This document shows, one piece after another, positions 1 through 6,000 of a DNA stretch of 64,000 nucleotides. The DNA is from a plasmid: NCBI RefSeq assembly GCF_054482525.1, contig NZ_JBTHVG010000003.1; one strand, written 5' to 3'. A program made the position numbers. Each line of letters begins with the position of its first letter. The first letter of the stretch is position 1.

Positions 1-3000
1 GAAAATCATCGTTTTTAGAGCCGTATTTAAAGAAAAAGTAGCTTTTGTAGGTTGGAACCACGATGCCGATTTTATCCCCATGCTCAACAACGTGGGTCGG
101 CCAGCAAAACAGGTCCTTCCAGTATTCACCTCCGGACTGGCCAAAAATGTTTTGCCTGTAGCGTCCGGTGATCATATCAATCCGATCCCGGGCCTGCTCG
201 TTCTGCGGTTTATGATAAAAAGCGACGACGTATGATTTATCAGGCGAGAAGTAAACATCCTTCATCGAGCCCGAACCAATTACCTCGTCAACATACTGGA
301 CTGTTTCGCCGTCCTTTGTTTTGCACGTAACAATATTTGCCATATTGATCACCGAAGAAGCGTATCCCTTACCACAACACCGCAATAGTGCGGTCATCGT
401 GGTTCCCTGTGGAGAAAAAGTTAAGCCAGTCGCCTAACCTCTCAGGCGCAATACTGGCGTCTGTAAGGACAGGGATGAGCTCATCAAGGAGACGGGTCCA
501 TTTTTCGTCACTGCGAAGCCCGTTATCTGTCTCAAACAGAGGGTCTGATACGCCATCTGTCATGAGGATCAAGTGAGATACATCATTCCATTTACCCACG
601 CTGATGCGGCCGCTAAACGAGGGGTCTGCGATAATGCTCTGGTCAAGAAAGCGGGTTTGTCCTGCGTATTCTCCGCTATCGGGATTTCCCAGTATCCTGA
701 CTTTACCGGAAGGGCTGTATGCACCTATCGCACCATCACCAAGCCAGAATGCAGCCGCAAACAGCTCGTTATCAGTTCGTAGCGCTACAGTTGCCAGTAG
801 GGTTGTTGAATAGGATTTCACAGGTTGTTCTGCACAAATGGCTTCGTTCTGGATACTGTTGACCGCGAGCGTAGCTGCCTGTTTAAAATGATGAAGCATG
901 GCGTTTATGGTTGCCTGCTGATCGCTCCCTTCCCACGCCGTGATGTGCTGCTTTAGATGGACGCCTTTCAAACCACTGAGCTGATTGAAAAGGTAATCGC
1001 CAGCCGTTTGGACTGCAATCCGGGAGCCTTCCCGGGAATTTACCGCACTACCGGCCCCGTCTGCGACCAGCATGACAGACCATCCTGTTTCCTGGCAGTG
1101 GTTGATATAGAAGTCGTCATCTCTGAAGCTCCCGGCATGCTCATGAGATCGTCCCCGGCGACTGGCGGCAGCAATACGTATGTCACCCCTGACCAGGCCA
1201 GCAGCGTCCAGATGGGACTTAGGGTAGGAAGCGTCTGCTGGTGGCTCTACCACCTTCCACAGGCTTCTCGGATCGGGATTGACTATAAAAAGCTGTTTTG
1301 TTTCGCATTCGTCGTGCGAAGCGCATGACCAGAGTACTGAAAGCTCTATATCGCCGCTTTCGGTGGGTGTACCTGTCAGCAACTTATGCTCTTTGTCAAA
1401 GGTCAGGCCAATGTTCCTGGGAAAGACAACGTCCCTGACAGTAGCCTGCTGGCCCTCATCCAGAACTATAGCAACCGGCGAAGAGAAACGTTCGCCTGCG
1501 CGGGCGTTGGGAATAACTATTTTAGCTCTCGGGGGAACGGCAGGTGGCACAGCTAATCCGGCCCGCTGCTGGCCTGTCGGTATCTGCCCGGGTTTTAATA
1601 CCAGGGAAGACAGGTTTTCGTCTTCCCTCTGTGCTGGTTTATCAAATTCGTAATAAGGCATCAGCTTCCAGAACGGAGGATGAGGTTCATTTTCTGGCAG
1701 GGGTTGCAGTAATGGTGTATCGGTAGCGTCAATGCCCGGGTTATCAGCATCACTTACGACCGTTTGTTGCTGATCGGAAAGGCTGGATGCTGACGAGGGG
1801 GCGATCTCTGCGTCGTTATAACCTTCGCTAACCCGCGCAGATAAACCCTGTGCAAGGCTCTCAATCCGCTCTTTAAGCCGCATAATCTCTTCAGTAAGGG
1901 AAGGGTCGTGCGATAGAAGAAAAAGCCGCTCACCTTCTACAGGGTGGCCCAGCTCAGACAGCACTAAGCGGATAATCTTCTCTTCAAGTAAAACATTTTG
2001 CGACATCAACCTCTCCCTCTGTTTACGTCGAAGTTAGTGTTTCCGCCATCATTGCTGAATGACAGACCTGTTTCACACCACGGGCAGATCACGTCATCCG
2101 GGCCGTCAATGCACAGCAATTTTCCGCATGAGCACAGGGCAAACGCACTGGCATTACCGCAGTGAGGGCAACCCGGTACGCCATGCAGTTCGCTGGTGTT
2201 TACCTGCAAACCGGTAGCGGTGGCATCTGACCATGCAAAATAGTCTTCATCGATGGGATAGCATCCGGCAATATTAAAGCTGTTCAGGTTCAGGCTGAAA
2301 TCGAGCCCGGAAATCCTTGCTGGTGGCCGTTCATACTTCATCAGATACGGACGACGGGTCTTGCTGCAACGGCCGGTAAGCGTAACGCAGTTTTCGTCGT
2401 ACGCTTTTACTGGCTCGTCCTTGGCCAGCCGGACTATGTATTCAGTCTGGCTGAGCTCAGGTTGTTTGTCGTCTCCGACGCTGCGGCTGTGCGCCGTAAC
2501 CGAGGCTGTGATCCATTTGATGAAGCGGGTAAAGTCCCCTTCCTGAGACTCGGTGAACAGCATGACATTCTCTGTCAGTTGCCGCAGGGTATTCAGGTCC
2601 GCTGACGGCCCCAGGCCAACGGCAATGAGATTCACTTTACTCGCGTAGTGATCCTTCCAGCGCTTCACTTCTGCGGTTGTGTCGTCAGTCGGACGTCCGT
2701 CGGTAAGGAGATACACGACGGGTTTCCAGTCGCCTTTAGCCTCATGAGTGGTTTTTCTGACCTGGGTATCAATTTGTACGGTCAGCTCACGCAATGCGGC
2801 CCCAAGGCTCGTACCGCCGCCAACGGGAAGGCGGGGAGGGTAGAACGAGGCAATTTCGTGAAGAGGTACAATCGTACGGGCTACACCGGCAAATGCGATT
2901 ACCGAAACCCAGGCTGTTTCAAGTGCGTGTGGATCCTTTCTTAAATCTCCGATGATCATTTGCAGACCATCAGTCATTTTTTTCAGGTTTTCACCAATCA

Positions 3001-6000
3001 TGGACTCTGAACAGTCCAGGACAAAAAACACGGGAAGGCGTCTCATAATTTTCCTCGTACGGCTGGTACGGCCAGCAGAAAACGTTGCTGTACAGAAAGG
3101 TGCTGCCCGGAAAGCAGCACCTTTCTGTCTGTCAGAGCACCAGCTGGATTTCTGGTGGAGGAGGGGGAAGGGTATCAGTTCCGTTATTGATCCCCGCGCT
3201 TGTGCTGCCGGAAGACACGCTGGCCGATACCCATTTAAAGAAACCTGCAAACGCGGTTGAATCTAGCGTCTCCAGAGACACAACCTTATCGGTAAGCTGT
3301 TTTAAGTGCTCATGGCCTGCTTTAGGACCAACGGCGCAGGCAATGATGGATCCGAATCCCCGGCCGCGAATCGCTTTTACCGCTTCACCGTACGCCAGGG
3401 CATCAGAAGGGGTTCCATCAGTCATCAGGAATACCAGAGGACGCCAGTCTCCTTTTGTATCACCATCTGAGCGACGTACATCCCGTTCAACACACTGCAT
3501 CAGACATTCAAGGGCAGCACCGGTGAACGTCCCGCCTGCGCTTGGCACAACGATGTCAGAAAACTGGAAGTCTTCCAGCGGCGTGAGAGGAATGAACTCA
3601 CGCGCCTCATTGTCATAGGTGATAATGGAGATATGAACGCTTTCGAGGGCGTAGGGATCCTGGCGAAGAGCGCTAAGCATCGCCTGAATTCCAACGTTAA
3701 CGGAATGGATGGACTCACCGCGCATCGAGCCGGATGTGTCGATAACAAGGTAAACAGGCAGGCGGCGCATCACATGTAATTCCTCAGGTGCGAGACAAAC
3801 GAATCTGATTCTGAAGGCTCACCAATTGCCCTGAGTTTCCAGCCTGTAGCCTCGCGTATCAGCTCGGCAAAAACCATGGAGCGCTGGCTGGCGAAGGCGG
3901 GTCCGCCAGAAAGATCGAATCGTGCCATTTCAATATTACGGGCATCTACTGCCCGGATGAAGGCATTCTGAACTTTACCAAAGTGCTGCTGGAGCTTTTC
4001 ACCATTGTAGATCTGAACGATGAACACAATTTTCTCGTACTGAGCGTCAAGGGAATTCAGGCGCACAATAATTTGCTCATCGTCACCATCACCGGCTCCG
4101 GTTCGGTTATCGCCCGTCAGCCAGATATTTCCTGACTTATGGCGAAGGCTGTTGAAAAAGATGATATCGCCATTCACAAGCGTTGGTTTACCATTTTCCA
4201 CATTGCCGAGATCGGTCACCTTTCCGGCTGAATTACACAGGAAAGCGATCACATCAAGGTCGTATTCTTCTTCTTTTTTACCAAAGATCCCGCCGAGGAA
4301 ACCTTTCTTTTCCTCATTAATATCCCAACCCAGGCCGATAGTAACGGACGAGAGATCGTATTCATTTTTTTTCAGGCTTACGCCCTGGCCTTTGCTCAGA
4401 CTGACAGACATGACATCCCCTTAATTAATAAAATTATAAGACCACGTTTACTTCTGGCGGCGGCGGTGGCAGGTCTTCAAGACCGATCACTTCTTTTTTG
4501 CTGGACTCCACTTTCTGACTGCCTACCGAAATGCTCGCACTGACCCATTTAAAGAAAGCTTTAATCGTCGAACTGTCAGCTGTATCGAGCTGAACCACGA
4601 TTTCAGTGATTTCTTTGAGGACGCTGGTATCGGCATCATGCCCGGCTGCACATGCCACAACAACGCCGGTTCTGGCCGCTTTAAAGTCATTCAGGCCTTT
4701 ACGCCAGTCATCATTCGGACTTCCATCCGTCATCAGGAATACAAGGGGACGCCAGTCACCTTTAGTGTCAGCCGTCGTTTTCTGTACTTCTTTGGCAATG
4801 GAGCTGGCCGTCAGGGTAAGCGCTTCGCCAAGAGAGGTGGTGCCGCTGGCTGTTAGTGCTGGCATCTGGAAACTCAGGAGGTCTGTCAGGGGGACTGCCT
4901 GTCGGGCTGAAGAATCAAAGGTGATCACTGACACGTAAGCCGTTTCGAGTGCATACGGATCCTGTTTCAGCGTGGTAAGCAGCGTCTGAACGCCATTCTT
5001 AACCGCTTCGATAGGCTCTCCGTGCATAGAGCCGGACGTGTCGAGTAGCAGATATACGGGTAAGCGTCTCAAATGTAATTCCTTCTTAAGAGATCGGAAG
5101 AGGAGAGTAGTTTCAGGAAGAGGCCAGAGTTTGTAGATTTGATAAAACGGCACGACATCTGTCGGGTGGAGATTAAATACTCAGAAGCGGCATTAAAGAA
5201 ATAAGTTAACCACCATTGAATTACCGACATGTGAATGGCCTCTTATCAGAGAAAAAAATTCAGACCGTACTGGAATATAAATTTCTGAAAAAAACTCCGG
5301 CAAAAATAAACTTTCTTATGTATGAAAATCATCATACATCACAGATCTGCATGAATGGAGTGTAAATCGCCCAAAGATTGATGTGTAGCACAAGAGGATG
5401 TCAAGACACCAGGTTTTGTAGGCAGAAAGGCGCTGCTGACATTGCGGGAGGAGAATAGATCAAAACTCCGTCACGCAGATACAGAGGTGAAATATGACAA
5501 AACCGGGGTTTTCACCCCGGTCTGAGATTTAGCGTCAGGACTTTTTAGCGCTGTATTCTTTTATCAGTTCATCAACGGAGTGCAGAGCCAGCTTCTCTAC
5601 CGCTTCACTTCGGGTCGAGCCACTCAGCGCAGCCAGACGGTCAATTTTTCTTAAAATCCGCATGCGTAGCGATAATGACACGGCTGTTTTTTTATCCTTA
5701 TCGAGTACGACCTTCCCTGTGGACTCACCGGTTTTCAGTTCAGCATTCTGTGCGAGCGCTTCATTCATCCGGCGAAGGGTCTTTTTATCCAGCTGGCCCG
5801 GATTAACGAGATGGTAGGAATGACCTGCCTTGCTGTATTTGATCTCCGCAGAATATGACTCGCGTAGCTCTTTGAGTGCCCGGGTTAATGTCGGCTCTGA
5901 GCATTCCAGACTGGTTATAATGTCGGCAGCGGAAACGGGCTTGCCGGTGCCCAGTAAGTTGGCAAGCTTAAAAATCCGGGCCTGTCTGGTATTTAATTGC

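Follow-up and report, generated by a model that had tools for sequence, protein, structure and literature searches.

The 64,000-nucleotide stretch of plasmid DNA analyzed here (RefSeq assembly GCF_054482525.1, contig NZ_JBTHVG010000003.1), called the window below, carries on the minus strand of its positions 1-5400 what is almost certainly the canonical ter-linked TerY-P module, in the form of the terY1-terX-terY2-terY3-PP2C-kinase operon known from the ter locus of IncHI2 plasmids. The system has already been published (2012), its gene names terWY1XY2Y3 are in use, routinely so together with terZABCDEF (PMC11003894), and the present finding adds nothing to the published description. An initial annotation made from the sequence alone had proposed a TerY-P-type triad (vWA, PP2C phosphatase and kinase) within a ter locus with three vWA paralogues, and this is borne out by the annotation of an identical plasmid, by Pfam and by extension of the sequence beyond the window. 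The operon consists of six open reading frames (ORFs) of the same orientation with tiny gaps between them. Their coordinates were given by the RefSeq annotation of pD90-1, a 100%-identical plasmid typed IncHI2A, which together with Pfam agrees with the gene order, strand and domains proposed initially. The linkage to terZABCDEF that had been described is likewise seen within the window, from ORFs and annotation.

To the edge of the window the sixth gene contributes only its first codons, and the encoded 114 residues, searched alone, match nothing in PADLOC or NCBIfam, so that the kinase call rests on extension. Extended in the identical plasmid, the ORF encodes a 499-residue Ser/Thr kinase with a Pkinase match (PF00069, 9e-10); the initial annotation had named a non-kinase at this place as the outcome that would speak against it. 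The kinase, PP2C and vWA domains for which a profile search had been proposed were all three found by Pfam. The catalytic loop of the kinase matches those of PKA, PknG and phosphorylase kinase in the PDB, and of 89 aligned members of its family, 73 to 88 keep each of H169-x-D171, S173, N176, D190-x-D192 and A212-P213-E214. This is a large family, and conservation extends along the entire protein. The phosphatase gives a full-length Pfam match to PP2C_2 (PF13672, 1.8e-46, residues 284-529) and its DG/DD motifs are invariant in 20 homologues. Judging from these residues, the enzymes of the triad look active. The vWA member of the triad proper is TerY3, in which Pfam recognizes a VWA domain (3e-13) and, over residues 217-346, a Cys-rich, metal-binding TerY_C domain (PF15616, 4.5e-53); its gene lies directly upstream of the PP2C and kinase genes in every related locus examined.

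Positions 1-5400 of the window match 1297 plasmid records, 734 of them at an identity of at least 99%. These are for the most part conjugative IncHI2 plasmids, hundreds of them 100% identical to the stretch, and their hosts are Escherichia, Enterobacter, Salmonella and Klebsiella. Out of 5426 complete E. coli genomes 380 (~7%) contain the stretch, at 285 plasmid and 101 chromosomal places; the full set of six intact ORFs is present in over 1200 plasmids and in 325 complete genomes of this species. No known RNA family was found in positions 1-5400 with Rfam. NCBIfam, run on the proteins of the window, returned vWA matches far below cutoff only and none for the phosphatase or the kinase fragment.

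Table 1 Features of the TerY-P operon and its surroundings, in window coordinates.
Feature	Position	Strand	Basis
terY1, vWA protein, 212 amino acids, TTG start	4434..5072	-	RefSeq/PGAP coding sequence in pD90-1
terX, TerD family, 213 amino acids	3770..4411	-	RefSeq annotation of pD90-1
terY2, vWA protein, 212 amino acids	3132..3770	-	RefSeq annotation of pD90-1
terY3, vWA and TerY-C metal-binding domain, 346 amino acids	2006..3046	-	RefSeq annotation of pD90-1, Pfam
PP2C phosphatase, 545 amino acids	369..2006	-	RefSeq annotation of pD90-1, Pfam
Kinase, first 114 codons of a gene for 499 amino acids	1..343, runs past the window edge (343..(-1156) in full)	-	RefSeq annotation of pD90-1
Perfect 17-bp stem-loop without U-tract, right after the terY2 stop	3092..3128	-	Folding
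Candidate sigma-70-like promoter upstream of terY1	5274..5303	-	Consensus scan, 9/12 matches
Intrinsic-terminator-like hairpin with T-run after terW	5500..5523	-	Scan, sequence read

Beyond its catalytic part, the kinase carries a zinc ribbon formed by C355, C360, C375 and C378, which are conserved in 91-96% of the family, with some 115 residues more behind it. Residues 335-499, modelled by AlphaFold2 with 43 homologues, reach a mean predicted local distance difference test score of 96.9, and the top 50 out of 50 Foldseek matches of this C-terminal model in the PDB are FHA domains, the FHA beta-sandwich fold being present. The same C-terminal module ends kinases of ~450-500 residues in many phyla of the AlphaFold database, none of which is named FHA. 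We therefore describe the C-terminal domain of the modelled kinase as having an FHA fold, with canonical phosphothreonine binding as a putative function. No link between TerY and FHA was found in the literature searched, which did not include Anantharaman et al. 2012. The kinase bears different labels in the databases. In pD90-1 its RefSeq product name is "lipopolysaccharide kinase InaA family" protein (499 amino acids). The RefSeq/COG label "helix-hairpin-helix DNA-binding" was examined and rejected as unsupported: Pfam recognizes kinase families only, and the C-terminus (residues 335-499) is accounted for by the zinc ribbon and the FHA fold.

The three vWA proteins of the operon are distinct paralogues with readable metal ion-dependent adhesion sites (MIDAS), the residues DxSxS, T and D being present in the translations of terY1, terY2 and terY3. 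The site of TerY1 is intact (DTSGS...T...D). TerY1 is 47% identical to TerY2 and 41% to TerY3, and since all three are only 38-47% identical to each other the triplication must be old and has been maintained. Both TerY1, with the C-terminal tail LPPPPPEVNVVL, and TerY2 end in LPPPPPE(V/I)(N/Q)(V/L)VL (encoded at 4434..4470 and 3132..3168, respectively), with the same PPPPPE in both. From enterobacteria as far as Chromatiales, the orthologues of both proteins keep this tail; TerY3 is without it and has TerY-C instead. From this pattern the PPPPPE tail is a candidate docking motif. The translation of terX keeps the metal-binding motif GDNRTGAGDGDDE, and terX orthologues carry PF02342. Two phage protein families of unknown function in PHROGs resemble these proteins, phrog_28389 the TerY vWA proteins (E 4e-21) and phrog_5698 TerX/TerD (E 1e-37); as judged by such profile matches, some phages carry TerY-like and TerD-like genes.

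Two of the vWA genes had been assigned non-ATG starts. For terY1 the TTG at 5072 is the start used by the Prokaryotic Genome Annotation Pipeline (PGAP), and four orthologues of 212 amino acids begin there with MRRLPVYLLLD; it is well supported, and the next in-frame ATG would cut away the MIDAS motif. The GTG proposed at 3773 for terY2 fared less well. Its Shine-Dalgarno spacing equals that of the terY1 TTG and two distant orthologues have 213 amino acids, but PGAP and the two nearest orthologous lineages use the ATG right after the terX stop, which yields a protein of 212 amino acids beginning with MRRLPVY. On this comparison terY2 probably starts at the ATG at 3770, which shares the A of the terX TGA, rather than at the GTG, which is kept as an alternative. 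The terX/terY2 junction itself, read directly, is ATGTGATG as first reported. The start of terY3 has to be moved by one base, from 3045 to an ATG at 3046, as the frame read from 3045 gave 22 stop codons. Direct reading also recovered the TGATG at the terY3/PP2C junction, in which one base is shared. In the Klebsiella and Pectobacterium loci the junction reads TAATG with the same overlap of one base, which makes three enterobacterial lineages in all, and the retention of the overlap across lineages argues for a conserved translational coupling. Upstream of terY1 lies an unannotated ORF of 53 codons (5069..5230, minus strand) with a good ribosome-binding site, the TGA of which overlaps the terY1 TTG (TTGA). 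We considered this ORF as a gene and did not retain it: a 95%-identical lineage has it undisrupted, but two of the three substitutions are nonsynonymous and it may be there by chance.

Between terY2 and terY3 the operon is split by the stem-loop listed in Table 1 into terY1-terX-terY2 and terY3-PP2C-kinase. For the intergenic region of 101 nt the folding energy is -41.2 kcal/mol (z = -4.7). Strong hairpins occur at this place in the Klebsiella and Pectobacterium loci, too (L007:7105-7202 and L008:7201-7325), but their sequences are unrelated; the Pectobacterium hairpin has a U-rich tail. In the distant loci a hairpin after terY2 was looked for and none was there. This suggests a maintained attenuator or mRNA stabiliser that would set the ratio of terY1-terX-terY2 to terY3-PP2C-kinase. 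At the other end of the operon, the terminator-like hairpin after terW suggests separate transcription of the terY1 operon. Promoter and terminator scans returned no more consensus matches in the region than in shuffled sequence.

The phosphatase is the most divergent protein of the operon. Between the IncHI2, Klebsiella-type and Pectobacterium loci it is 47-48% identical, versus 79-89% for the other five proteins. In the corresponding DNA profile codons 1 to ~150 of the PP2C gene (window 1540..2006 holds codons 1-155) are unalignable, and the rest of the gene is at 45-65% versus 70-80% elsewhere. An AlphaFold2 model of the protein predicts N-terminal helices (residues 7-59), a disordered hypervariable linker (59-149), an eight-strand Ig-like beta domain (161-243) and the PP2C_2 domain (266-545); the beta domain matches He_PIG in one of 20 homologues at E<=0.001 and in four of 20 at E<=0.1. 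Replacement of the gene was considered and discarded, as identity falls gradually around the disordered N-terminal 150 codons and there are no sharp breakpoints at the gene edges. The simplest reading of the fast divergence, given the modelled disorder, is a relaxed constraint on the linker. That the PP2C N-terminus is an arms-race sensor is possible but unsupported.

The six-gene order is found far beyond the enterobacteria. In Thiorhodococcus drewsii (Chromatiales) and in a betaproteobacterium we found genes for TerD, vWA (212 amino acids), TerD (213-214), vWA (213), vWA with TerY_C, PP2C and kinase in succession. Identity of these distant proteins to those of the window is 73-75% for TerY1, 63-68% for TerX, 66-68% for TerY2, 57-58% for TerY3 and 66-67% for the kinase (full length), and the orthologous vWA proteins carry PF00092. 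Across bacterial classes protein identity is 56-75% and the catalytic motifs are kept. In the betaproteobacterium TerC and TerD genes stand before the cassette, and HAD and two PRTase_3 genes come right after its kinase gene. Neither TerC nor terZABCDEF genes were found within 10 kb of the Thiorhodococcus cassette. A metagenomic locus (L009) has several vWA genes, AIM24, a PIF1-like helicase, vWA with TerY_C, PP2C and two kinases, and no Ter genes. On these gene orders, the invariant core is vWA with TerY_C, PP2C and kinase, and the ter-linked form is a six-gene unit kept in distant Proteobacteria.

Upstream of the operon in the window, on the same strand, lie terW, then a DUF4236 gene, then genes for a C-C lyase, a StiP/phosphoribosyltransferase (PRTase), a HAD-like protein, a PRTase and an ATP-grasp protein. 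terZABCDE and terF are divergent, from 12576. In the window as in Klebsiella and Pectobacterium the operon adjoins ATP-grasp, PRTase, HAD, C-C lyase and terZ-F genes. TerF (17554..18795, plus strand) combines a TerD domain with a TerF-type vWA domain (Pfam 2.8e-34 and 3.4e-69), which brings the number of vWA domains in the ter locus to four, not three.

Following Anantharaman et al. 2012, we propose, with a confidence that is even or slightly better than even, that the module is a metal- or stress-sensing phosphorylation switch that tunes the Ter complex and/or the metabolite genes. The switch would consist in reversible phosphorylation of threonine or serine in response to metal or stress. 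The vWA/TerY-C and TerD-type proteins would bind a divalent metal or a protein ligand, and the kinase would phosphorylate a partner, most plausibly TerY or a TerD-family protein. The FHA-fold domain would dock the kinase to its partner or to its own phosphosite, and the PP2C phosphatase would reset the switch. The output would act on the TerZABCDE/TerC membrane complex, by adjusting how active or how toxic it is, and/or on the neighbouring genes for a nucleoside-like metabolite. Constructs carrying terXY1W together with terZABCDEF have been reported to outlive shorter ones, with terZ-F alone, under tellurite or oxidative stress (PMC11003894).

Several observations weigh against such a switch. 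The kinase has an atypical N-lobe, and its H44-K45 departs from most relatives, in which position 44 is K or R. The full kinase gives no Pfam FHA match at E<=10, and within the FHA-fold domain only W418-H419 and N452 are near-invariant, with no conserved Arg or Ser evident. The Thiorhodococcus cassette, with no terZABCDEF or TerC gene within 10 kb, indicates that terZABCDEF is not a strict requirement of the cassette. Insertion sequences (IS) lie within the module in NZ_CP047547.1 (H1) and NZ_CP122916.1 (H28), ISVsa5 in one and IS100 with ISEc69 in the other, which shows that the module is dispensable for carriage of the plasmid. These plasmids are possible natural knock-outs for comparison of phenotypes.

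The strongest competing explanation, which we regard as unlikely and yet worth serious attention, is an autonomous antiphage system of the Gao 2020 TerY-P kind, acting for example on T7-like podophages and merely co-located with the ter genes in a stress or defence island. The logic of vWA, PP2C and Ser/Thr kinase is the same, TerY-P systems are described as protecting E. coli against T7-like phages (Gao 2020) and a P. aeruginosa variant as acting against Autographiviridae. The Thiorhodococcus cassette without terZABCDEF, the ter-free relative beside the PIF1-like helicase and the TerY-like and TerD-like proteins encoded by phages all favour this explanation. So does the very fast evolution of the PP2C N-terminus, often a trait of arms-race sensors, although the hypervariable segment is predicted to be disordered, which would be enough by itself for fast drift. 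Against the explanation, the cassette includes the TerD paralogue terX as a conserved and integral component, and its kinase bears a zinc ribbon and an FHA fold, as opposed to the OB fold described for the tested systems. The phage-inhibition and colicin phenotypes of R478/IncHI2 are ascribed to terZ, terC and terD (Whelan 1995, as cited in PMC12054061), and a terC deletion in Klebsiella also loses phage resistance (PMC12054061). The antiphage link drawn initially thus holds for the three-domain set, which is that of TerY-P, but neither the described OB fold nor the mapping of the IncHI2 phage phenotype follows it. With PADLOC-DB v2 the vWA and PP2C proteins had no match at E<=0.001 or at E<=10, the presence of TerY-P models in the library being unconfirmed, and at E<=10 the kinase matched only generic kinase models (mad6, PD-T4-6 and MkoA). 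Ten diverse members of the kinase family and a ter-free triad again gave no TerY-P model. Since no such model appeared even for these relatives, the PADLOC result, which taken at face value speaks against an antiphage system, neither proves nor disproves kinship with the Gao system. A bolder version, which we consider doubtful, makes the cassette a self-contained sensor of infection or stress: the FHA-fold domain would read a phosphothreonine of TerY or of the activation segment, the PP2C N-terminus would set the stimulus, and phage resistance would be independent of terZABCDEF. If this were true, hundreds of clinical IncHI2 plasmids would carry an unrecognised defence system missed by current defence finders.

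Alternatively the module might mainly regulate the adjacent genes for ATP-grasp, two PRTases, HAD and C-C lyase, predicted to make a nucleoside-like metabolite, and not the TerZ-F complex. In the window, Klebsiella and Pectobacterium the operon is on the same strand as, and directly downstream of, those genes and terW, and in the betaproteobacterium a HAD gene and two PRTase_3 genes stand immediately behind the kinase gene; the Thiorhodococcus cassette, in contrast, has no such genes within 10 kb, and we think it distinctly improbable that they are the main target. That the six genes are decaying passengers without current function might be imagined from the IS elements inside the module in some plasmids. 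We find this scarcely credible: it is already contradicted by conservation, namely by the intact ORFs of the plasmids and complete E. coli genomes counted above and by the catalytic motifs kept at 56-75% protein identity across classes.

Elsewhere in the window, the annotation of the identical plasmid has a helix-turn-helix regulator paired with a HipA-family toxin at ~21700..23340 (plus strand), beyond which lie HNH endonuclease, helicase and DNA cytosine methyltransferase genes. A class 1 integron in the resistance region, at the window's far end, is indicated by an Rfam match to AAC_AAD_leader/attI (56411..56489, minus strand; 71 bits, E 5e-13).

Most IncHI2 multidrug-resistance plasmids carry the ter locus, as do hypervirulent Klebsiella plasmids, and the locus is linked to infection and gut fitness. 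The TerY-P operon is its least studied part. Handles for further work are the FHA-fold domain of the kinase, the conservation of the six-gene cassette and the fast-evolving phosphatase.

The threonine-phosphorylation pathway of the P. aeruginosa H1 type VI secretion system (T6SS), which consists of PpkA (kinase and vWA), PppA (PP2C) and Fha1 (FHA), is a reversible switch of a membrane-associated machine. It uses the same four domain types as the operon, Hanks kinase, PP2C, FHA fold and vWA, in a different arrangement: in the H1 T6SS the vWA domain is on the kinase and FHA is separate, whereas in the operon the kinase bears the FHA fold and the vWA domains are on proteins of their own. There is no sequence relationship beyond the shared domains and there are no T6SS genes here, and the likeness is therefore one of analogy, not of membership.

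Closer are the systems named after TerY-P. Gao et al. 2020 (Science 369:1077) gave the name TerY-P to what PMC11090510 presents as a TerY-P-like variant whose Ser/Thr kinase has an OB fold. Its three genes are of the same kinds (vWA, PP2C and Ser/Thr kinase), and a phosphorylation switch is presumed for it as well. It is described as stand-alone, with a C-terminal OB fold on the kinase. The kinase of the operon has a zinc ribbon and an FHA fold instead, and its triad forms part of a cassette of six genes that also includes a TerD paralogue and two more vWA genes. The triads of CoCoNuT/McrBC-type systems (Bell et al. 2024, eLife, PMC11090510) are the same triad, with a zinc ribbon at the C-terminus of the kinase; they adjoin helicase/nuclease restriction genes, not ter genes, and the metagenomic locus L009 resembles that class.

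The closest counterpart is the triad of 2012 itself, which according to PMC11090510 was predicted by Anantharaman, Iyer and Aravind (2012, Mol Biosyst 8:3142) to be a metal-sensing phosphorylation switch tied to ter genes and to DNA-processing systems; in R478/IncHI2 its genes are terY1, terX, terY2, terY3 and the next two ORFs downstream. TerY vWA with TerY-C, an adjacent PP2C, an adjacent kinase with zinc ribbon, and linkage to ter and PRTase/ATP-grasp genes are all present here. Each of the defining features examined was found, namely the MIDAS vWA, TerY-C, PP2C, kinase, zinc ribbon and recurrent neighbourhood, the last seen in Thiorhodococcus, the betaproteobacterium, Klebsiella, Pectobacterium and the ter-free metagenomic locus. 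The passages of PMC11090510 that deal with the triad describe its kinase as a Ser/Thr kinase with zinc ribbon and leave an FHA-fold domain unmentioned; nothing essential differs between the triad as described there and the operon of the window.

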